This document shows, in pieces, positions 116 through 51,854 of a DNA stretch of 64,000 bases (its first letter is position 1; each line of letters opens with the position of its first letter). Source of the stretch: a virus. Made by a program: the position numbers and the translations under genes. The DNA is taken from the IMG/VR virus record IMGVR_UViG_3300032331_000813, positions 1-64,000 of that record; one strand, 5' to 3'. The notes beneath the pieces were generated by a model. The model ran no database searches and had not been told where the DNA came from. It saw only the letters and a list, made by a program, of their open reading frames with translations.

Positions 116-751
116 TTATTTAATTTTGAGATCATTGATGAGGCGCATTACTTCCTCTTTCAAGTATTTCTCTACTTTCTTGTTGCCCTGAGCATCTTTT
201 GCTAAATCCAACAATTTATGACCATGACGCATATTCATCATACCTTCATAGATTGCTTTAGGATACGCATTAGGTGCGCTTGGTTGTGCAACAATGTCCA
301 CGGTGACTATTTCAAAGTCACTTACTTTGCCGTTCATGTCGTCCACGTTACCGCTACCACGACTTGAAACGCCGAGTTTCACCCCACTCTCCAACATAGT
401 AGCAACTAGTTGCCCCATTGGAGTTGGTAAAATCTTTAACTTGCCGAACCCATTAGCCCCGTCCATCCACATTGTAGTAATCATGTGTGATACACGGTCT
501 AGGTTGATCTTTAAGTCATCTGGGTGATCTACTTCACCTAATACAGAATGACCTTCTGTAATCTGTTCGTTCAATGTTTGTACAGCAGATTCGATTTCAG
601 AAACAGGGTAAACACGCTCATTGGCGTTCTTTACCCCACCCTGAATGAAGATACCTTTCATATAAAGGTTCTTCTTATCGCCTTCACTTACGCTTTCAAC
701 AACCATGCTTGCGCGGTCGAAAGTTAAGTGTTCCTTGAGATACAAAGCCAT
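116..751 (-). CDS. gp21: Prohead core protease (T4 gp21-like)
   Basis: Motifs GIFIQGGVKNANERVYP, LGEVDHP, LGVSSRGSG and DIVAQPSAPNA typical of T4-type prohead proteases. Confidence 0.93.
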   Translation of the reverse strand: MALYLKEHLTFDRASMVVESVSEGDKKNLYMKGIFIQGGVKNANERVYPVSEIESAVQTLNEQITEGHSVLGEVDHPDDLKINLDRVSHMITTMWMDGANGFGKLKILPTPMGQLVATMLESGVKLGVSSRGSGNVDDMNGKVSDFEIVTVDIVAQPSAPNAYPKAIYEGMMNMRHGHKLLDLAKDAQGNKKVEKYLKEEVMRLINDLKIK

Positions 752-6700: not shown

Positions 6701-7353
6701 GCAAGCAATGCATCTTCATATGCAATCAAGCCTCTATAAGCAGCATCAATGCTACCAATTAATCGGTCCATTGCAAATTTTACTGCCATAACTCCTAACT
6801 TCTTTGGCAGATCCATTAATGAATTAGCTGAACCAACTATTGCTTGTTCATGTTTTTTAATTGCTGCTTCTTCACGTTGAACCATATTCAATCGTAAAAG
6901 GTCAGCTTTATTCATTCTAACGGTTAGATCAACAAGTTTATTATTTTCATCAATAACCCTGTTCATACTTGCCAGCTGAGATTCTAGCAAATTAGCAGAA
7001 GCCAATCTAGCTTTTTCTTCTTTTTGTTGTGCTTCTGAAAGTTTTTTCCAACCCGGTATGGCTTCTGCCATTATTTTGTTAGTTTCTTCGTCTAACTTTT
7101 GACGTTTTTTAAGTTGTTCTTCAGATTTTTTACGGGTAGTATATAACTCTTTTTCGACTCCGGTAGTTTCTTTTAATACTAAACCTAACTTATCAAATTC
7201 TTTTTCAACATCTCGTTGTATTTTAACTGAGTCTTGAAAACTTTCAGTAGCAAGGTCAGTTTCCCCGCGCATTCTTCCTATGGAATCCGCGGCTGAATCC
7301 GCACTTATATTCAATGCTTCAAGCAATTTTTGTACGTCAATTTCATTGGTCAT
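3739..7353 (-). CDS. Tape-measure-like / ejected virion protein with C-terminal lysozyme-like domain
   Basis: 1204 aa, long Ala/Gln/Lys-rich helical body, hydrophobic Gly/Ala stretch (GPIGWIVGAVVAAAGAFIWF), Trp-containing repeats, Gly-rich linker, then RTNNPGN motif domain. Confidence 0.65.
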   Translation of the reverse strand: MTNEIDVQKLLEALNISADSAADSIGRMRGETDLATESFQDSVKIQRDVEKEFDKLGLVLKETTGVEKELYTTRKKSEEQLKKRQKLDEETNKIMAEAIPGWKKLSEAQQKEEKARLASANLLESQLASMNRVIDENNKLVDLTVRMNKADLLRLNMVQREEAAIKKHEQAIVGSANSLMDLPKKLGVMAVKFAMDRLIGSIDAAYRGLIAYEDALLAGANDEVTMGIARREQMQAEADAHGNLGESLKSLGGEMVILGAAAFATSIAVGAAGGAAALLEIALAALSGPIGWIVGAVVAAAGAFIWFKGREQEQVKKSIEYQKKRDEDLGKQNKALYEGYEKLSDSALVGSRGLQGMFDDLQKVGFTVSQFEKLNKVLQANQKDMKLFGAGLVDGAKQFTENAGNLINSELGGQLRAMGINQEQQMEHMAQFMSQQSKLGAKASGDQAKAAANYVLELDKMAVLTGASRKEQEDARKAILSMNQLRAAMLEAEEAGDTDKLAELTRAFETSSALMAAGLKAEGSALAKLSAAGGGPVDAETARIYQAMSGAGGTLEMIKSGQGSNVDRTQAAVSGLMKQNKQYLGTTKLTGGVAGQTMGEGDLGTLIDLSKSQDKIKTAAAQGSMTPEEYAASQRKPAADAEAATKARIAQQETMLKTDKGLREGTLKAPGVDDAANIVSGFAEGVKSFIKGVDEWVGNVADSMFGKGWWAKYGPGGEQDQENWRITKELFNNMWDSAGKEFAPWWDKYGIGGEQDQKNWEITKKAFDDMWTNTKSMTSEIGATFSKIGKDFGKSLEDVVNGMITAIKNLIKMIPGVGETIDKAKEVGGKAVDTVKSAASSVAGAASSAWGGVTSAFSGGGGGGGGKTASAGGGRGGGASPAASAGGGRGGGAPAAAPAGGGGGGGAPAAAPAGGGGGGGAPSGGGGGKGSSSEAVPSASPGAMGTETVQAATPAKPAAASGDSLVQMGNEVRIGDKIKKGGTVSWRTNNPGNNSYSDLAKKYGAIGTWKKLDGDAQQRSTGIAIMPSLEAGDNLKMAQWRRPMYIGLDIDHGVSQWTNGNKDKNLGTTYAKDIAKAAGVGVDTIIGDLTDTQLKAMVTKQRVWEGFKEGQVVSASLEGIAKGPESGYSAQLHGTELIKRLTPNSILDQLANTPAPTVGQTKSDGTVDVLAEIHQMMEDKFNTMISALRDGNDLTDKILKYSMV
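4585..4752 (-). repeat. Four 42-bp (14-aa) Gly/Ala/Pro tandem units in the tape-measure-like gene
   Basis: TASAGGGRGGGASP / AASAGGGRGGGAPA / AAPAGGGGGGGAPA / AAPAGGGGGGGAPS; GC-rich island in AT-rich DNA. Confidence 0.85.
5041..5235 (-). repeat. 108-bp (36-aa) tandem duplication in the tape-measure-like gene
   Basis: WWAKYGPGGEQDQENWRITKELFNNMW versus WWDKYGIGGEQDQKNWEITKKAFDDMW; MW codons at 5041 and 5149, 108 bp apart. Confidence 0.85.
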
Positions 7354-26517: not shown

Positions 26518-29500
26518 ATGGCAACAAGAATTAGAACATTAAATTTTCTTCCAGAAATATTTAAAACACCAACCAATAATCAATTTTTATCAGCAACATT
26601 AGATCAATTAGTTGCTCAACCCAATACGGAAAAGATAGAAGGTTATGTTGGTAGTAAATTTGGATATGGTGTAAATCCAAACGATAATTATGTAACTGAA
26701 CCAACAAAAATTAGAACAGATTATCAATTAGATCCGGGTGTAGTTTTCTTAAAAGAAAATGATACTACTGCAAAAGATTTTATTAGCTATCCGGGCATCA
26801 TTGATGCATTAAAATTAAAAGGTGGTATAACTGAAGATAACAGTAGACTTTTTAATAATCAATTTTATTCATGGGATTCTTTTACTGATTTAGATAAAAT
26901 CATTAACTTTAGTCAGTACTATTGGGTACCTAATGGACCAGAAAGAGTTGTAGTACAATCAAGTGCAATTTATAGTTCGGTACAGTATAATGTACAATCA
27001 GAGACTGCATATTATGTAATTTCATCTAATGAAACTTCACCTGAAATTAATCCGACACTTACACTGTTAAGGGGCGGTACTTACACATTTAAAGTAAATC
27101 AAGATTCTAATTTTTGGATACAAGGCGTTCCTGGATTGACTGGATATAGTCCTGTACAAAGAAATTTACAAACACGTAACGTTTATGGTGTTGAGAATAA
27201 TGGAATAAAAGATGGTACTGTTACCTTTACTGTACCACCCAAAGATGCATTAAGTGAATATTATTTTGTAAACTCTACTACAGTTGATGTAGTGTCTACT
27301 TTACCATTTGCTCAAGTTAATGGTGCAACTGTAGATTCTATTGGTGGTATTGATGGTGTTACTGAATTAGACGGATTGACCGTAATGTTCTACAACACTG
27401 GAGTAGAAAATGAGATAGCTTATACTAATCAATTTTTTGATCAAACACAGTTTGATGAAGAAGGCGGTGTACCTTATACTAATTCTTCTCAAAGAATAAC
27501 AAAAACTATTACTGATAGTAATAGTTTAACCAATGAATTTACTTATATAAACGATACTGGAATTAGTGACTTTCAAGCGAATGATGCTATAACTTTTGTA
27601 GGAACATTAATTGGCGGGGTTGTTAAAAACAAAACATATTATGTAAAAGAAATTACATCTTCAAACACGTTTACTATATCATCAACAGTTAATGGAAATG
27701 TTGTTGAATTGACAGATGCTACCGGTGGTAGTATGACTGTAAGAATACAAACTAGTTATCCTGGCACTGATATTTTTGATAATAACTTTGAAGGTGGATT
27801 CTATAATCAAGTAAGTAGAAATTTTTATTCAGTTACGTTATTAGGTGATGTAGATAATCCAGTAATTCAATTAACTCGCTTATCTTCTATCCCTGCTAAA
27901 ACTACTATCACTGCTGAGTTTGGAGCACAATGGGCTTCAATTAATTTCTTTCAAAATTCATTAGGTGAAATTCAACTTCAACCATATAACAGTGCTATAC
28001 TAGATACATTGTATTATCAAGATGCGACTACTTTATCTAAGGTAGGTCAACTTAGAATAATTGACGATAACTATACTAATTATATTGACGTTGATTTTGA
28101 TATTTTGGGAAAGAAAAACTATACGGCACCAAATGGTGTAGTATTTACCAATGGATTAAAAATTATATTCCAAGGTAATATCTATCCATCTAAGTATGAA
28201 AACGTAGAATATTATGTAGAAGGCGTGGGCAGTGCAATTGAATTGATTCCGGTTGCTACTTTAATATCTCCGGGATTGTTTACCTCAGGTGAGTATACTC
28301 CTTACGACTCTACCCCTTATGATTTGGGTAACTATGATTCTAATTTATATGTTCCTATCAATCCAGATTATCTTACTATTGCTAGAAATTCTATCAATAG
28401 AAATGCATGGTCAAGAAGTAATCGTTGGTTTCACATTGACGTAATTAATGCAACGGCTGCATATAATAACACACCTTCTTTAATAACAGAATACACAAAT
28501 TTAGAAAATAAAGCAAAACGACCAATTATTGAATTTTATCCTAACATAAAATTATTTGATTCTGGTGCAGTAGGTAAAGATCCTATAGATTTTATTGATA
28601 CTAGGACTACAGATGCATTTACATATGTAGCTGGTCAATCCTCATATTTTCCAGATGTTGCCGGTTATACAGGTTATAATGCTACGATTGCACCAGTTAC
28701 CTTAGCAGACACCTCAGTGATAGCAACAAACGTATATGGATATACTGATACTATAGCTGTAAGTAGTGTTACAGGTTTATATGTCAATGACACCATAAGA
28801 TTCACTGTTCCTATAATTAATGCTGTCTCACTTGTTGTTGGAAAAACATATGTTATAAACACACTTGGTTCTACTAATTTTACACTAGTTGGAGCATTAT
28901 CAAATACAGTAGGAACATCTTTTGTTGCTACTGGAGTAGGAACTGGCACCGGTACTGCAACTACGTTTGGAGGACTTACACCAAACACTACTTACTATAT
29001 AACTAGTATAGAAACAAATGTTCAAGTAAGTTCTAATGTGTTTAAAGATTTGATTACTGTCTCTTTAACTAGACAGGGTGTAAATGTAAATCTATCAAAC
29101 TCAGATACATTGAGTATTGCCACATCAATATATCATTACAGTACTTCTATTACAGTTCCTACTAGTAGTATATCTGGGCTATTTGAAAAGAATCAATACG
29201 TATCAGACTCGACCAATTATCTACCTAGTGTAACATTAATAAGTAATGTAACAACGGTCAATGATAACACTATAATAACTGTTACTTGGACAGTTCAAGC
29301 AGTTATTCCTGCAACTTCAATTGCTTCAATTGTCTCTGCTGATACTCCATTAGATAATTATGGATTATTTGATGGTGCTAGAATTGTGTTTGCAGCAGAG
29401 ACTACTGATTCAGTTAGGAATAAAATATATATTTCTAGATTTGCTTCAATAACTCCAAATGGAACTCCTTTAATTACTTTGGTTGAAGCAGAAGATGGAC

Positions 29501-38500: not shown

Positions 38501-41500
38501 TACAAACTGGAGATTTAGTAGTATATACTGTTGGCCCTAACTCAACCCCTATAGGTGGATTGAAAGAAGGTCAAAGATATTATGTAAATCTTCTAGAAAC
38601 TATACCTGCACCAATCATTGCACTTTATACTGAATATCTATCTGCGATTGAAGATCACGATAGAGTTATATTAGATAGTACTGGCACAGGGACTCAAAAG
38701 TTCAGCATGGGTGCTGCTGCAAATGCAATAACAAATGCAACACCAATAAGAGAAAATATAATATCATTAAGATTTGATAGAACAACTTATAATTCTCAAG
38801 TAGTAGAGTGGTCACCATTTGGATATTATGGTTCTTTCTATGCTGGAACATTGCGTAATCCCGACAAAGTAGCATCATCTGCAATTACTTTATACAGTAA
38901 CACTCCGCCTATTGAAACTATATTAGCAAGTGCTCAGGGAGCAACATTTGAAATTTTAGATACTACTAATCAGCAAACACTTGAGTGGTCATCAAGAACA
39001 AGAAATACAATGCAGACGTATGGTAGTCTTTACCCTACTGAAGCATATAGAAATGCAATTCGTATCGACCCGTCAGACGGTGGTGTAGCAGTAGAAGGTT
39101 TTATTGGATCAACAATTGGTTTCTATATAGGAATGCCAGTTAAGTTCAACGGGTCAACTATTGGTACATTGTTAGAAGATGATGTAACTTACTATGTTAA
39201 GTCATTAGTTAAGTTACCAAATACAGGAACATCAACTAGTGCAACCAGAACCAATGCTTCAAATAATACTATTACAGTAGCTAGTTCTGTTAATTTTAAA
39301 TTGCAAGATACTGTTGTGTTTACTAGTGCTACGCAGATTATATCTTCCGGATATTTTGTTATAGGTCAAACGTATGAAATAACAACAGTAGGAACAACTA
39401 ACTTCACCTTAATAGGTGCTGCTTCAAACGATGTTGGTACTGTGTTCATTGCAACTGGAGTCGGCACAGGTACTGGAACTGCGGAACAGAGAAGTTTGGG
39501 CAATGTTATATATCTTGAAACATATTATATCTTGAGTAAACCGTCTGCAACTACAGTTACACTCTCACAAACATTAGGTGGTAGTGTATTCAAGTTATCT
39601 AATGCCACTGGTGTAATGACAATGATCAGACCTGATACTGATGTATTAGAAGATACTGGTTTTACGATTTCTGATACAGTTGACGAGAATGGTAATCCAG
39701 GCGCAGTTTATTCTCCTAACATTGGCATTGGTTCAGTAACTATTGCACCTGCAGGATTAAAATTACTAACAGGCAATCAAACTAATCTTGAGATAATAAC
39801 AATTAATTATTCTGGATTAAGAAATACTGTAGCTACTACAGGTACTACAAACACAGTAACTGTATTGTTGACTGCTACAGGCGAAAATGGTACTACTGGA
39901 TTCTATACTGGACTTCCTATATTCTTTGTAGGTAATACGTTTGGTGGAATTGTTGAAAACATTAGTTATTATGTAACTACTGTTATTGATGCACAGACAT
40001 TCACAATGTCTCCTACATCAGATGCACCTTTTGCTATTAGTTTCACTGAAACCACATCAACAGATAATTTAGTTGTTTGTGGAACAAGTAGTACTGAAAA
40101 TATTACTTTAAACTTGTCAGTCAATGAACCTATCATATTTACTGACTTCGTATTAAAAGCAGGTTACTTTACAATAGGACAAGTATATTCTATAGTTTCT
40201 GTAGCAGATAATAACGGCGGTGCTACTACTGATTTTACTTTGATTGGTTCAAGTTCTAACGCTATTGGTACTATATTTACTGCTACTGGTGTAGGCACTG
40301 GAACCGGTACTGCTACCCCAACAAGTCCTTCTACTACGTTTGGTGGAATAGTTTTTGGTAAGACATACTATGTAAGACAAAAGTTTGCAGACGTTGACCC
40401 AATTGATTTAGTTACAACTACATACTCTATTTCTATAGCTGAAAGCGTAAATGGAGATGCAGTAACATTAACTAATACGGTTGGTTCATGTTTGTTTACA
40501 AGTCAAAAAGATACACTACCATTAACAACAGCGACAGGTTCTATGACTATGAATGTTGCATTACCAGTAAGTCCTGGACAAGTTGATGGACAACAGTTTA
40601 CTTTATACAACACTTCTAGTCAGTTAGCGGGCAAACAAGGAACAGTATCTAATCTATTGAATAGAGAAATAACTTCTACTTTAGATACAGTTAATAGAAT
40701 TTGTTTATCTTCATTTAGCGGTGGATTAACTGACATATACAATAATTTACAATTTAAAGTTTCTACACCAATTGGTGGATTGACTAATGCTACCGTTTAT
40801 GCTGGTAGTTTCATTGTTGGAAATGTTTATACAATAACTTACATTGGTGATACAACTCAATCTAATTGGAATACTATTGCAGGTACTACTGGTGTAGTAT
40901 ACACTATAAACAGTGTGTTTACTTGTGCAGCAACTGGAACTTATATTGGATCACAAACTGGATCTGCTGTAAGAGTTTATAAAATAACAGGAACTGGAAC
41001 TACCTCAGTCAAAGTTATTGAAACTCAATCTTCTGGAAATTGGTTAAGGTTAAACGATGACGATAATCCAAATACTACTGATGTTTTATATGTGGGTATG
41101 CCTTTATATTTCAGCGGTACTTCAGTTGGTTCTGTATCATTAGGTGTAGTGTATTATGTGTTTAGTATAGATTCAAGTCCACCGTCAGGTACAGGTAGAT
41201 TCTCAATATCAGAAGTATCTGATTTGTCTAGCCAATTTACAGTAACTGACGATGTTGGAGTAATGACCGGATCAGGAGATCCTTATGTAACAATAACTTC
41301 TCCTGCGTCATTACTAGATTCTAATCAAATAGCAACTTTCTCAAGTGCTCCTAGCACTGCAACAGTAACAGTAACTAACGGCTCATCATTTACAAATGGT
41401 ATGGCAATAAGATTCAATACTACTGACACGTTACCTACTCCGTTGAAAATAAATGTAACTTACTATATTAAGAATCTTAGTGGAAATACATTTAATATAG

Positions 41501-44500: not shown

Positions 44501-47500
44501 ATAATGGATCATTATTGATATCGGGTATTACTGAAACTGTTTTGAGAACAAAATCAAGTACTAATACCATCACAGCTATTACTACTGGAGGATTGATTGT
44601 AGGTACACCTATCGTATTCAGCGATACTATATTTGGTGGTATAGAGCCTGGCATAATATATTACGTAAACTTAATATATGACTCAAACGAATTTACAATA
44701 TCTGAAACTTTGGGCGGTTCTGATTTAGAATTAACCGATGCAACAGGTAGCGCAATATTCATAACAAATGACTATGCTATTGGATTTGCTGATAATGGAA
44801 TATCTGCGGCAGTAATATTCTCTCAACTGTATGACACAACGGTTGACTATATAAGTTACACATTGTTTGGTGAAACATTCCCTATTCAATATGGATATAC
44901 TATCCCGCAAGTAGAAACATTTGTTGGTGACGGGGCGACCTCTACTTTTGCTTTAAGTAATTATATATCAGATGACAGCGTTGTTAATGCAATAGTAGAA
45001 ATAGACGGCATTCGCAGAACATTAGCAGAATATACTATTAGCACTATTACTAATAGTATTACGTTTAAAAATCCTCCTAGTGCAAACCCTGCGACTACAA
45101 CAGCTGGTAATTTTGTAGTGGGAACTTCTTATCGTATTGCGTCATTGGGAACAACTGATTTTGTATCAATAGGCGCAACTTCTACGGCAAATGTTACTGG
45201 TTCTATTAGTGGTACATCTTTAACTATTACTAGTGTTACTTCAGGATTATTAGATTCAGGAATATGTATAACAGGTACGGGAATAACAGCTGGCACATAT
45301 ATTACTGATCAAATATTAACGCAGACAGCGGGCAATTTTATTGTAGGGATGCCATATAGAATAGAGTCTATTGGAACAACTGATTTCGTAGCAATAGGTG
45401 CAGCTTCAACAGCGGTTGTAACCGGTACGATTAGTAATGGTTTAGGTAGCGCAGGTAATAAACTTAATGTTACTGCTTCAACTTCAGGTGCGTTAGCAGT
45501 AGGCACTTACATAACAGGTACGGGCGTAACCGCAGGAACATATATTACTGCTTTGGGTACAGGTAAAGGCGGAATAGGAACTTATACTGTAAGTGTGTCA
45601 CAAAATGTAACTTCAACTACTGTTACAGGTCAACCGTTAGTAGGTGAAGGATTTATTGCAACTGACATAGGATCTGGTACTGGAACTGCAACACAAACTA
45701 ATCCCGGTGGAATAGGTTTATACACGGTTGATACTTCACAGACAGTGGCAGAAACTGCAATAACAGGTCAACCAACTGTTGGTACTGTATTTACTGCAAC
45801 TGGCGCAGGCGCTGGAACTGGAGTTGTAACTGGGCTAGTAAGTGTCGCAGTAACGACATATAACTTAACCGAACGTCAGTATCTTAGCACTCAATATAAT
45901 ATTACTGGTATCACACAGACTAGCCAAGGTTCTGTAACAGTAACTGGTAGTCATGGGTTAGAAGAAACATATGATATGCCAGTTAATGCAGGCTATTTTG
46001 ATGTTGGACAATCTTACACTATACAAACATTGGGTAATACAAATTGGACAAGCATAGGTGCAACTCAAGTAACTGATGCTACCTTAACAAAAGGCACTCA
46101 GTATATTATTAATACTTTGGGAACCGCAGATTGGACTTCAGTTGGTGCAGGTGGAACAGTAACTGGTAGTATATCTAACAAAACTATCAATGGGGTAAAT
46201 ACTGGAGTACTAACTGTAACTAGCGTATTGACCCCGTCGATTGTAGTGACTGATTTGGTTATTGGACAAACTTATACAATTTTATCATTAGGTACAACTA
46301 CTAATACACAATGGAATACTATTGCAGGCACTACTGGAAAAACATATGCGGTAGGTAATAGAATAGATGCTCAAGTAGTCGGGACTGGTACTGGCACTGT
46401 AGCAATGAATATGGTAGCAGTTAATCAATTCCTTAGCAGTAGTAGTGTTACTGTTACTGCTGGTAATTTTAATATAGGAACTTTATATACTGTTGCAACA
46501 CTCGGTACTACTAATTTCGTAGCCGTAGGTGCAGCTTCAACTGCGGTAGTAACTGGAGTTATTGGTGTTACTGTTACAGCTGGTAGTTTTGTAATAGGAA
46601 ATTCATATTTTATTACAACATTAGGGACTACTGATTTCACTTTAATTGGTGCAAGTTCTAATACAGTTGGTGTTACATTTATTGCTACGGGCGCAGGAAC
46701 TGGTACTGGAACTGCAACTAGACCGGGTATAGCAGGTACTACCCTTAATGTATATGCAGTTACTTCAGGTACATTAGCAGTTGGCACTTATATAACAGGA
46801 TCAAATGTAGCAGGTGGCACTCGTATTACAGCATTGCTTACTGGAACAGGTGGAATAGGTACATATACTGTTAGTACTTCACAATATGTAAATTCAACTA
46901 TAATAACAGGACAGCCGGCGGTTGGAAGCACATTCACTGCTACTGGAATAGGAACTGGAACTGGAACTGCATCCTCAAGCATTGCAGCAAGCACAACTAT
47001 AACAGGTTTCTTAAGTGGTTCAGGTGGCGTAGGTACGTATACATTGAGTAGTCCACAAATTATAACAAGTAGAACCATGACTCTTGGTCCTAATGTAGGG
47101 GTATTATTTACCGCTACTACTAATAGTGATCCATCAGGTTCAGGCGGATTTGCATATGTAGCTAGCTTTACTGCAACTGGGGCGGGTACTGGTATTGGTG
47201 CCGGAACAATAGCGTATAGCACAACAGATTTTTCTACATTACAGTATTGGTTAAGTACATCAGCAGGAGGCACCAGTGTATTGGGTGTAAATTATCCAAT
47301 AGTATTTGGAACAGTTATACCAAACTGCGGTATAACTGCCGGAAGAAGATATTATGTAACAAAAATATTAGATTCTTCAAGATTTACGGTGTCTACTCAA
47401 GTAGGGGGAGCATCTCCTAAATTAGAAACTACTACCGGTACTATGATTGGCACAATGACTCAATTATCAGTTTCACCGATTGACAACATAACTAATACTA

Positions 47501-49788
47501 TAACACGTCCTGCATTTAGTTTATCTATTGCAGAAATAAAAGGTGGATCTCTTGATATAATAAACGTAGCTGCAACTACCGTAGGTAGTCAGTATGTTAT
47601 TGTAGCTTTAGGAAACACCAATTGGAATACAGTAGGTAACACTACAGGAATCACTTATGCTGCCGGAGATTTATTGACTGTAGTAAATGTTGCTACTGGA
47701 ACTACCGGTACTGTACAGCTTGCTGATGTTATAAAAGTACCGGATGTATATGGTTTGGCAGAAGGTCAAGATGTTATATTTAAAATAAATCAAACTAACG
47801 CTGGTTCATTTTTAGTTGGGTATGCGTATGTTATTAATGATTTAGGTAGTACCACACAATCACAATGGAACACTATAGCAGGTACCTCAAGTGTAATATA
47901 TAAAGTAGGAATGGGATTCACTGCTGCAACTGTTGGTACTGGTACTGGAACTGCTGTGTTAGTTGACGTAGGTGGATTGAATACATCCGGTGAAACTTAT
48001 TTTGTTAAAACAGTTATATCTAACCCATCAACATTATACGGAAGCTATTTCATAGTCGAAGATCAATATGGCACAGTACCAACATTGTCAACTACTATGT
48101 ATGAAATTGTAGCATACATTGGTGGTACTCCTACTATCAGAATTAATACAGCTACTGATACAAACTTAATACAAAATAATGTAGTACGTATTGACGGTAC
48201 GATTGGTTCAGTTCAATTGAATAATAATATATACTATGCTAAGATCATACGCAATAATATTATTGATATCTACACAGAGCCATACAATCCAGCATTATAT
48301 GCAGAAAATTACCCAGTAATATCATCTTACACTTATGTGTCTGGTGGTTACATTTGGGTAGATGAGTTGTTCACAGTCGCTGACACTTACGCAACTGCAT
48401 CTAGTTCAAATGGTAATAGAATTACAGTTGCTGATACTAGCATGTTAGTACCGGCTACCCCTGTGTATTTTACACAATCAGGTTCTGAGATAGGTGACGA
48501 TTTATTAGGCGGAGTAAAAGCTAAAACTGAATACTATATATTACAAGTAAGACCTGAAATCGCAGCTGGTAATTTTATAGTAGGAAACTATTATGAAATT
48601 TCTATTCTTGGCGATACTAATTGGAATACCATGTCTGGTATAACTTCAGTAAATGCAGGTTCATTTGTAGTAGGATATACATATCAAATTACTTCAGCAG
48701 GTAATACTGATTTTACAACTATTGGTGCAACATCAAATACAGTAGGCGTAATTTTTGTTGCTACTGGAGTTGGTTCTGGTACCGGAACTGCTAATATAAT
48801 ATACGTTGCCGGTGATGTTTTTGAAGCAGCATCTGCTGGTAGTGGTACTGGATTTGCTTTGGGATTACAAGAATTTACTATAAGTGAAAAGAGATTCCCA
48901 GATGAAGCTGAAGTCACGTTAATCGATGATAGTTCAAGTGCTATTGAAAATACAATACACGTATCACAATTCCAACAAGTTAATGTTGATAGATTGTGGG
49001 TAACAATTAACGGTTATAGAGTACCGTCATCATCATTAAGATTGAATCCTTATAATAATTTAAGTATTTTAGCTACAGTAAATACCGGAGACGATGTAAT
49101 TATTACTAGCATGATGCCTACAGCTACACCAAATGAAGAAGTGTATCTATTAAACGTGCCAATGGTAGCAGATTCATCAGTGTATAGGGCAAACACACAA
49201 ACTAGAACATGGTTGGTTGAACCACTAAGATACGTAGATGACACTATTTATTTAAATGACATTAGTAGAGTTACGGATACCCTTACACAAGTATCAACGG
49301 TTCCTGCTGAGTTAGATGGAAAATACAGCATAGGTGTTGTTGGTACTAAGAACACGATCACTAGCGTAACTGTTTACAACAACACAACTGACGCATGGAT
49401 AGATCCAGCTGTATACTCGCTTGTAATAGTTGATTTTGCTCCTATCTTAGAAATCGACAGTGAAGTTTCTGAGGGAGATTCAGTCACTATCACTATTATT
49501 GAAGGAAGATTATTGTACATCAATGGAGAACAGATTGGATTTGGAAAGTGTGACTTAATAAACAACACCGTAACTGAATTATCTAGGGGAACAAATGGAA
49601 CCGGGCAGCAAACTTACATACCGTTGTATGCTGAAGTCTTTGGTATGTTACCATCTAATCAGATGACCAGTGTATTATATTCTGACACATGGAACCCAAT
49701 CCCAGGAATTTACAATACAGTTGACGGAGATCCATTGCAGATTGCATATACCCAAGGTGCAAACTTCTTGCGAGGCGACATTAATTAA
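26518..49788 (+). CDS. Giant 7,756-aa baseplate/fibre protein (gp7-position wedge scaffold fused to many adhesion-like modules)
   Basis: Single uninterrupted 23.3 kb ORF after gp6; contains an EVKPYH wedge-like motif, FG-GAP-like and BNR-like propeller repeats, about 16 copies of a ~45-aa GTGTG module and about 15-17 copies of a ~70-aa beta module. Confidence 0.8.
45103..47214 (+). repeat. Recursively nested protein-module array inside the giant gene
   Basis: Modules A (AG.F.VG..Y.I..LGTT.F..IGA...VG..F.ATG.GTGTG) and B (VTG.I....L.VT...SG.L.VG..ITG...AGT.IT...GG.G.YTV..SQ) interrupt one another with matched N- and C-halves. Confidence 0.8.
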
Positions 49789-50606: not shown

Positions 50607-51854
50607 ATGGCATATACAATTGTAAAGAGTAATGGTCAAGTACTGACAACCATTGCTGACGGTACTATCAATACTAACAGTAGTTCACTATCCTTACCGG
50701 GAAGGAACTACGCTGGATATGGTCAATACGTTGACACTAACTTTGTCTGGCTGACTGAAAATTTTGCTAATTCTAGCCCACCTAGCAATCCTCTAGCAGG
50801 TCAATTGTGGTTCAATACTAACAACAGCACAATGTACGTATGCCCAACAGACGGTACTACTACAGCATCTAGTTGGTTAGCATTAACTTCTACTGCCAGT
50901 GGCGGAACTACTACGTTTGGTGCCATTACTGTTACTGGAAATATTATAGGTAACAATCTTAGTATCGCTAACAATATAACAAGTGCTAACATAACCGTAT
51001 TCAATGCTAACGTAACTACTAGGGCTAACGTAGTTTTGGCTAACGTTACTACTGGTAACATTGGAACATTGTATACTACTATTATATCAACTGGGGCAAC
51101 TACCACACTCGGATCAATAACAGGTACATGGACATTAAATGGTACTGGAACAGCTAATAGTGTAGCTGGTACTGGTATGTATGTTCAAGCTGGTAATATT
51201 GTAGTTAATAATTCTGGTAACACATACGGTATTAAGACTGACCGTTACATGTACGCAAATGGAGCTGCTATAAGTTTTAGTGGCACATATACAAACGGAA
51301 ATGTTTATGATTACTTGACAGGTTCTAATTCAGCTTCTAGATTTGCTGGAGCATTAGCTCCTTCTAGTCTTACAACTACTAGTCTTACTACTGGAAGTTC
51401 TTCAATAGCAGGACAGATTACAGGTAACTGGACATTGGGTGCTAGCAGTAGATTGAATGCAACATACGCTGATTTGGCAGAAAGATTTGAAGCAGATGCA
51501 TACTATGATGCAGGTACTGTAGTTGAATTGGGCGGTGAAAAAGAAATTACTAGCGTAAGATACGAATTGAGTGAAGATATCTTTGGTGTTATTTCTGACA
51601 CTGCTGCTTATTTGATGAATTCGGGGGCAGGAGATAATTCAACGCATCCTCCGGTTGCAATGACAGGTCGTGTTCAAGTTAAAGTTAAAGGCATAGTTAA
51701 AAAGAATGATCGTTTGGTTAGTGCAGGAGAAGGCATAGCACGAGCAGCTAAACCAGGTGAAGCTACAGCATTCAATGTTATTGGTCGTGCTTTAGCAAAC
51801 AAAACTGATAATAGTATTGGGACAGTATTAGCAATTGTTACTGTATCTAGATAA
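50607..51854 (+). CDS. Tail fibre/spike protein with C-terminal intramolecular-chaperone (peptidase G2-like) domain
   Basis: N-terminal anchor (GRNYAGYG...ENFAN..PP..P..GQLWF), Asn/Thr beta repeats, C-terminal YADLAE...GVIS...AYLMN...VAMTGRV.VKV.G. Confidence 0.7.
   Translation: MAYTIVKSNGQVLTTIADGTINTNSSSLSLPGRNYAGYGQYVDTNFVWLTENFANSSPPSNPLAGQLWFNTNNSTMYVCPTDGTTTASSWLALTSTASGGTTTFGAITVTGNIIGNNLSIANNITSANITVFNANVTTRANVVLANVTTGNIGTLYTTIISTGATTTLGSITGTWTLNGTGTANSVAGTGMYVQAGNIVVNNSGNTYGIKTDRYMYANGAAISFSGTYTNGNVYDYLTGSNSASRFAGALAPSSLTTTSLTTGSSSIAGQITGNWTLGASSRLNATYADLAERFEADAYYDAGTVVELGGEKEITSVRYELSEDIFGVISDTAAYLMNSGAGDNSTHPPVAMTGRVQVKVKGIVKKNDRLVSAGEGIARAAKPGEATAFNVIGRALANKTDNSIGTVLAIVTVSR

Follow-up and report, generated by a model that had tools for sequence, protein, structure and literature searches.

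Probable recursive insertion of two small domain families in a giant, putative baseplate protein of an IMG/VR phage

The nested segment of the giant gene

The stretch analysed here (the window) comprises 64,000 nucleotides of viral DNA, positions 1 to 64,000 of IMG/VR record IMGVR_UViG_3300032331_000813; the source record is 84,465 bases long and rated approximately 15% complete. A single open frame on the plus strand (26518–49788; the features below lie on this strand unless stated otherwise) forms a giant gene of 7756 codons. Over the N-terminal two thirds of its 7756-residue product, it matches the family phrog_10938, annotated as 'virion structural protein', with an expect value (E) of 2e-253. 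In the C-terminal part, at 45988–47214 (residues 6491–6899), lies a 409-residue segment composed of whole and partial copies of two small modules, A and B, of about 50 and 72 residues, respectively. The original prediction, made from the letters and the open reading frames (ORFs), parsed this translation like balanced brackets, A8[A9[B3[A10, A11[B4[A12]]]]]. Profiles built from unrelated proteins bear out this parse, and we judge it likely that the segment represents recursive domain insertion, with at least five of the six levels being true insertions.

First profiles, made from uninterrupted A copies elsewhere in the giant gene, already gave half-matches in the segment. For an independent definition of the modules, we searched the segment against 1.84 billion representative proteins, which returned 2114 proteins at E up to 0.001. 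Whole-module profiles (Aext and Bext) and profiles of the first and second halves of A (A_N and A_C) were then built from 259 intact A and 23 intact B copies, taken from the best 150 of the 2114 proteins. The null set was 3000 windows drawn at random from those parts of the giant protein that lack modules.

The N-terminal part of the segment contains the openings. Level 1 is opened by the first half of A8 (45982–46062; A_N match of 38.5 bits at residues 6489–6515) and level 2 by the first half of A9 (46072–46152; A_N, 18.1 bits at residues 6523–6544; Aext, 27.2 bits). The first piece of B3 opens level 3 (46153–46233); its Bext match is weak (9.4 bits), and by eye it carries the VTGxIS...LxVT pattern of B2. 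A loop of B3 holds a side bud, the whole module A10 (46249–46404, residues 6578–6629), which is of a Trp variant and scores 40.3 bits with the profile of that variant, covering Aext positions 5–50. The bud is followed by the second piece of B3, its middle strand (46411–46446), which at 1.8 bits is not significant alone and adds about 6 bits to the joined module. Level 4 is opened by the first half of A11 (46453–46533; A_N, 28.1 bits at residues 6646–6672) and level 5 by the first strand of B4 (46540–46569; 5.0 bits). Level 6, the tip, is the whole module A12 (46570–46719, residues 6685–6734), which matches Aext positions 1–50 with 73.7 bits.

The closings follow. The remainder of B4 (46726–46917) matches Bext positions 9–72 at residues 6737–6800 with 70.8 bits and closes level 5, and the second half of A11 (46918–46977; A_C, 17.7 bits at residues 6802–6819) closes level 4. 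Level 3 is closed by the third piece of B3 (46978–47088), which scores 39.0 bits over Bext positions 35–70, the B tail mapping to residues 6834–6855 with 18.1 bits. The second half of A9 (47089–47163; 11.6 bits) closes level 2, and the second half of A8 (47164–47214; 11.5 bits, with an A_C match of 4.1 bits at residues 6883–6892) closes level 1. None of the 3000 null windows reaches the scores of the second halves of A8 and A9, the Aext score of the first half of A9 or the score of the third B3 piece, and 10 of 3000 reach that of the first B4 strand. Short pieces missed by the profiles are recognisable by eye; the first strand of B4, for example, resembles the start of the intact B2.

The closings run B, A, B, A, A. 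Of the 10 possible orders, this is the one in which the last opened is the first closed, as had been predicted for half-matches to profiles of uninterrupted modules. A sister nest with the structure A6[B1[A7[B2]]] (45097–45831, residues 6194–6438) was found by the same profile mapping. Its closings are A, B and A, one of three possible orders, and its joined modules score 69.1 (A6), 79.5 (B1) and 69.9 bits (A7). The predicted module boundaries need some amendment: the parse stands, the second half of A9 also includes the motif 'FAYVA', and the N-side of B3 is weakly supported.

Separated halves as probable single domains

Excising the inserts in silico restores end-to-end matches to the outside profiles for A8, A9, A11, B3 and B4. 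The joined halves score 50.6 bits for A8 (positions 2–48 of 52), 40.4 bits for A9 (6–46) and 66.7 bits for A11 (1–51), and the joined B pieces score 42.7 bits for B3 (4–70 of 72) and 85.8 bits for B4 (2–72). When an A first half is left with its un-excised neighbour, the match ends at profile position 30–33.

Natural sequences show the same joins. From other phage contigs we cut 17 A[B] cassettes; these share 54–70% identity with A11[B4] and are colinear with it except for a single 56-residue gap, which is A12. The alignment in question (A3) consists of the cut cassettes only, in a tested order. An alignment of full-length matches (A1) placed the first half of the cassettes on A12 rather than A11 and was not used; the MAFFT placement of this half on A11 or A12 flips with the rows supplied. 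For the outer levels, natural A-in-A doublets are available from the giant gene itself and from two other contigs; the first halves of A8 and A9 taken together are colinear with the first halves of these doublets, and the second halves of A9 and A8 with their second halves (36–46% identity).

We modelled the 409-residue segment with AlphaFold2 and the cassette alignment. The model is confident (predicted local distance difference test (pLDDT), 65–93) just where the alignment covers the segment, i.e., in both halves of A11 (65–85 for the first), the first strand of B4 and the rest of B4 (84–93). About 73 residues within model range 183..310 superpose on single barrels of translation-factor domain II (Z-score 5–6.2, root-mean-square deviation (rmsd) 2.6–3.2 Å), and we therefore predict that the B4 strand ahead of A12 forms one barrel with the 66 residues that follow this insert. 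A two-level nest elsewhere in the gene, a whole A inside a Trp-variant A (48553–48864), has an unambiguous alignment and was predicted by AlphaFold2 with a pLDDT of 92.3 and a predicted template modelling score of 0.74. Its outer halves (pLDDT 78–93) show the strand-strand-helix/strand-strand order of the inner copy.

For the two outer levels, the first halves of A8 and A9 (60 residues) and the second halves of A9 and A8 (43 residues) were folded as separate chains with ESMFold2. The interaction prediction score from aligned errors (ipSAE) is 0.76 (0.70, 0.76 and 0.76 in the individual runs), compared to 0.02 for the best of three controls. Of 80 solved complexes, 58 reach the mark applied, as do 2 of 110 mismatched pairs; these counts are rough for this case, in which our own four-row alignments were used. 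The runs share at least 97% of their contacts, and partner pLDDT is at least 85. The contacts with the lowest predicted error join Tyr14 of the A8 first half to F28, T29 and A30 of the A8 second half, and Y43 and I44 of the A9 first half to L7, F8, T9 and Y24–A26 of the A9 second half. The pairing is therefore nested (A8 with A8, A9 with A9) and not crossed, between pieces that are 312–390 residues apart in the protein.

The expectation that distant halves form single domains is thus borne out in predicted structures for the outer two levels, the B4 barrel and the two-level nest. Together with the excision and the colinearity of cassettes and doublets, this supports the claims that the modules close in the reverse of the order in which they open and that the halves of each act as one domain. 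Separated pieces make one domain around a whole domain, as in other discontinuous domains, and over several levels the guest is itself a host, with reverse closing; the contacts cover the two outer levels, and level 3 (B3) includes weak N-side pieces.

Authenticity of the segment

Module copies in the giant gene are 60–84% identical at the DNA level. This divergence and the agreement of independent contigs rule out recent duplication or mis-assembly. One contig, from another sample of the same study, spans 45000–47400 with 111 substitutions and no gap; a second, from an independent riverine study, spans 45814–47400 with 50 substitutions and no gap. Among 40 strain differences listed, 27 affect the third position of a codon and 28 leave the amino acid unchanged, and frame and length are kept. 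The relatives of 45000–47400 in the other sample of the source study and in the independent riverine metagenome are approximately 95–97% identical to the window. A run with a marine label holds smaller pieces of this region, and several lake and freshwater runs show small word shares.

Orthologues and other relatives

Through the C-terminal domain, we found 12 orthologous giant genes, with 39–67% identity over that domain. They are colinear with the giant gene to residue ∼6190 and again from residues ∼6919–7069. The 720-residue block that carries both nests is replaced by 80–173 residues in the orthologues, even in close metagenomic ones. The original prediction had proposed to check orthologous genes for varying nesting depth; in these, the block is absent, or two tandem A copies stand at the site. 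The sister nest interrupts a host beta domain between its strands 'NTPP...' and 'VSVTSYNLTDRQY', which in orthologues follow each other directly. Counting this host, the sister block is five levels deep, because A6[B1[A7[B2]]] itself sits in a loop of the host domain. This arrangement is seen at window positions 44905–45912, and the flanking strands are contiguous in four orthologues (L161, L164, L167 and L169). The six-level nest lies in the linker that comes next. At this site, one orthologue (L166, ORF residues ∼2775–2900) has two tandem whole A copies, one of the Phe type and one of the Trp type, and other orthologues have an acidic linker.

Further relatives carry the A[B] cassette in other places. 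A 395-residue JGI/IMG 'hypothetical protein' (P0078), a fragment orthologous to the C-terminal domain, has a cassette in a loop that holds none in the giant gene. In another protein (P0122), the cassette lies inside an apparent tail-collar domain, for which the Pfam match is weak (E 0.0016) and below the cut-off. The cassette appears to be mobile, entering the loops of host domains that are unrelated to each other. Among the best 150 matches, 41 hold at least one split A, and there are 380 bracket pairs compared to 8 second halves that lack an earlier open first half.

Weak points and alternative readings

Several observations weigh against a nest of the full proposed depth. The score of the first B3 piece is reached by 28 of 3000 null windows (p ∼ 0.01) and that of the second by 175 of 3000, which is not significant; the count of exactly six levels depends on B3, whose N-side is weak. 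The whole-segment AlphaFold2 model has a mean pLDDT of only 55, with values below 50 for A8, A9, B3, A10 and most of A12, and no model shows the whole arm. We take this model to say nothing either way about the three outer levels. The two-chain prediction suggests competence and order for two levels only, since the first half of one A copy would probably be complemented by the second half of any other. Furthermore, the pairing was read from contact lists and superposition ranges rather than from coordinates. Finally, one distant relative (P0048) has about a dozen A first halves in a row at residues ∼1590–2480, and a comparable series of second halves, each of 17 residues, comes after them. Otherwise identical members of its cluster (P0153 and P0154) differ by one first-half unit of 29 or 36 residues; second-half motifs are constant at 20 and first-half motifs number 24–26, so that paired gain or loss of halves is not seen. 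These variants may reflect assembly error among near-identical repeats, or pairing that is not strict. Because cluster members differ by single first-half units, we claim no nesting depth for P0048.

The missing confidence for A8, A9 and B3 in the full-length model and the poor scores of B3 pieces 1 and 2 would be expected if the half-modules were remnants of a decayed tandem array, unpaired and forming a loose Gly/Thr-rich linker with a few intact domains. The low complexity of the sequence points the same way, as does a filtered tblastn search of the nested segment against phage records, which gave no match, probably on account of the low-complexity filter. This reading is already disfavoured: joined halves match full-length profiles, openings and closings balance in number and type in both nests of the gene and in most relatives, the outer halves co-fold far above the controls, and the strain variants are mostly synonymous, with no insertions or deletions. 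We give it little credence.

The P0048 cluster, with its varying first halves, fixed second halves and unequal motif counts, supports a different idea, that first halves make up one kind of repeat and second halves another, independent one, each stacking with its like as a hairpin array and a Gly-rich strand array, so that one-to-one pairing would not be needed. In the window, by contrast, each split A is matched by a single partner, and the pieces of B are interleaved as a stack demands, an arrangement for which independent arrays would have no need. The two-chain model sets each first half against its own second half, the outer and inner copies of the two-level nest share one secondary-structure order at a pLDDT of 92, and the 259 intact A copies collected show the two halves as one unit. 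Independent repeats are most improbable for this segment.

The third alternative, which accepts the nesting and also tells against a simple stack of domains, is that strands are exchanged between neighbouring levels, giving interdigitated units in which B3 might be completed by strands of its guests. Swapped recursive insertions have been reported for cyanobacterial RNA polymerase Si3 (PMC11515920), the N-side pieces of B3 are weak, and in the two-chain model Y43 and I44 of the A9 first half also touch residues 24–26, just before the second half of A8. The lowest-error contacts nevertheless fit unswapped A8 and A9, and the first strand and remainder of B4 superpose on ordinary single barrels, so that we regard strand exchange as improbable. 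Recursive insertion with unswapped pairing remains the reading we prefer.

Folds and insertion sites of modules A and B

Module A is probably an SH3-like small barrel, judging from weak fold matches of its model. The closest are FeoA (3e19_A; Z 3.8, rmsd 1.9 Å over 45 residues) and IdeR, a DtxR C-domain (4o6j_A; Z 3.8, rmsd 3.8 Å over 50 residues), and the matches of the FeoA and DtxR C-domain type range over Z 3–3.8; all values are below 5 and in the chance-level range. In BFVD, which holds predicted viral structures, all fold matches of A are annotated 'uncharacterized protein' of uncultured phages. The predicted structure of module B, which is based on 18 sequences, is consistent with a six-stranded barrel of the translation-factor domain II kind. 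It matches more than 20 domain II chains (EF-Tu, IF2/eIF5B and SelB) with Z 5.0–5.9, below 8, and rmsd 2.6–3.5 Å over 71–76 of ∼77 residues. An Atlas lead from B to E1_FCCH scored only 0.84. No HABAS-like fold (hybrid-motif barrel, CATH 2.40.50.100) is among the fold matches listed for A and B, which does not exclude one. Two RNA polymerase beta' chains appear among the matches, with Z 2.7–2.9 over 35–36 residues, and Pfam gave no match.

The chain ends of both modules are close together, and both modules tolerate a guest in a surface loop. B takes guests at three sites: after strand 1 (B4), on either side of the middle strand (B3) and before the last hairpin (B1). Module A has at least two insertion sites, because the guest in one relative (L097, ORF residues 497–602) occupies a different A loop, after 'LGD' and before 'TDF'. 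In another relative (L081, ORF residues 221–444), a single host A holds three whole guests in tandem. A main-chain module of about 80 residues ('..V.F.G...GG...TYYV...TF.IS..'), found at window positions ∼28795–29010 and ∼39300–39620, also hosts whole A copies (e.g., residues 760–830), between its 'VxF' and 'GG..TYY' strands; a third family thereby joins the nesting.

A proposed fold-back arm

Based on this pairing, the chain would run outward through the first halves of A8 and A9, the first piece of B3, the whole A10 as a bud, the middle strand of B3, the first half of A11 and the first strand of B4. It would turn at the tip, the whole A12, and return through the rest of B4, the second half of A11, the last piece of B3 and the second halves of A9 and A8. 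Every host domain would then consist of an outward and a returning piece, and the 409 residues would form a fold-back arm of six domains and one bud, with both ends at the base of the arm. Sequence statistics, comparisons and models show how the halves are ordered, that they fit as whole domains once the inserts are excised and that the block is specific to a lineage; the arm would probably be rod-like. The predicted branched, tree-like fold applies only to the attachment of such arms to a main chain of tandem modules; the domain graph itself is a nearly unbranched path, A8-A9-B3-A11-B4-A12, with A10 as its one bud.

A host loop or linker could gain such an arm, lengthen it or lose it with no disturbance to the host. 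This view fits the orthologues without the block, the tandem A pair in one orthologue and the A[B] cassettes in loops of unrelated fibre domains. More tentatively, and with slightly more doubt than conviction, we propose that A and B are an insertion-competent pair and part of a general phage grammar for fold-back arms. The A[B] cassette would hop between loops of unrelated receptor-binding domains and reinsert into itself level by level, so that reach and valency of the baseplate periphery could change fast without harm to the host fold; depth in some relatives may exceed 10, beyond published cases. The sites used under this proposal would be loops of a tail-collar-type domain, of the C-terminal domain of an orthologue and of the ∼80-residue main-chain modules, together with linkers that join these modules.

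The usual view is that fibres and adhesins grow longer by repeats added end to end. Here a virion appendage would be lengthened by putting domains into domains, with both chain ends at the base and the arm as a removable unit in a loop. Since a single site is without an arm in some orthologues and holds two tandem copies or an arm of six levels in others, this may be a route to rapid change of receptor-binding proteins. Members of the A and B families occur in more than 2000 protein clusters of environmental phages. Profile searches list nested proteins as strings of 'partial' domains, and nested architectures are therefore misread systematically.

Comparison with known nested domains

In a 2026 survey of 2.7 million classified domains, the six-level nesting of Si3 in cyanobacterial RNA polymerase is the most complex case (PMC13114784). 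In Si3, which belongs to the beta' subunit (RpoC2), HABAS or sandwich-barrel hybrid domains are inserted into one another and are partly strand-swapped (PMC11515920). Our literature searches found no published phage-fibre case of recursive domain insertion. The original description of the segment as very unusual is fair, with the qualification that six levels are published for Si3 and that relatives of the modules nest commonly.

The segment resembles Si3 in that small beta domains sit in loops of copies of themselves to a depth of six, in that one host may carry more than one guest and in that the elaboration is lineage-specific, with relatives that have fewer or no such domains. Unlike Si3, it belongs to a predicted virion (baseplate) protein and not to a polymerase, and it alternates two unrelated families (A, SH3-like; B, translation-factor domain II-like), whereas Si3 uses one. 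In other phages, moreover, unrelated host domains carry the A[B] unit as a cassette in their loops. What is new here is the alternation of two unnamed domain families and the mobile A[B] cassette; the depth equals the published six. With Si3, the segment offers a second natural system in which the folding of deeply discontinuous domains can be studied, and it suggests host-and-guest scaffolds for protein design.

Module B and the I-domain of the P22 coat protein are alike in being barrels that sit in a host-domain loop of a phage structural protein. The P22 I-domain is a single-level insertion, and its host is an HK97-fold coat protein; B is both guest and host. Structurally, the two superpose with Z 4.2 and rmsd 5.6 Å over 83 residues (2m5s), and domain II of EF-Tu and IF2 superposes better.

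Genomic setting

Upstream of the giant gene lie a gp5-like hub/lysozyme gene (phrog_13211), a gp25 gene (PF04965) and a gp6-like wedge gene (phrog_10646; E 7e-250). The order is hub, gp25, gp6-like and giant gene, and the giant gene stands where T4 has gp7. No match to a gp7 family was found for it, phrog_10938 being the only family matched. We regard the giant protein as a putative baseplate protein at the T4 gp7 position with a very long C-terminal elaboration. From this context, and because relatives are tail-fibre-type proteins, the arm may display host-surface-binding domains on the periphery of the baseplate.

The protein shares its N-terminal two thirds and its baseplate gene neighbourhood with the PHROG 10938 giant proteins of jumbo myoviruses (PA5oct, Atu_ph07, SCTP-2 and the RaK2 group). 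The first ∼700 residues match those of PA5oct, Atu_ph07 and SCTP-2 more distantly, with 29–36% identity, and the RaK2-group records match residues 11–150 only. The nests lie in the 720-residue block, and none of these phage records matched the nested segment. The segment likewise matched no Pfam family at E up to 0.1 and no NCBIfam family at E up to 1, and among the sequences of solved structures (PDB) the best E was 0.85.

On the minus strand, two antisense frames of 120 and 161 codons (46425–46787 and 46788–47273) lie wholly within the nested segment; in all likelihood they arise as by-products of the coding strand with its repetitive Gly/Thr codons. A 415-residue ORF that lies two genes farther downstream than the giant gene (50607–51851) matches PF11962, Peptidase_G2, at the cut-off (E 1.5e-05). 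This is an autoproteolytic intramolecular chaperone domain that is typical of tail spikes and fibres.

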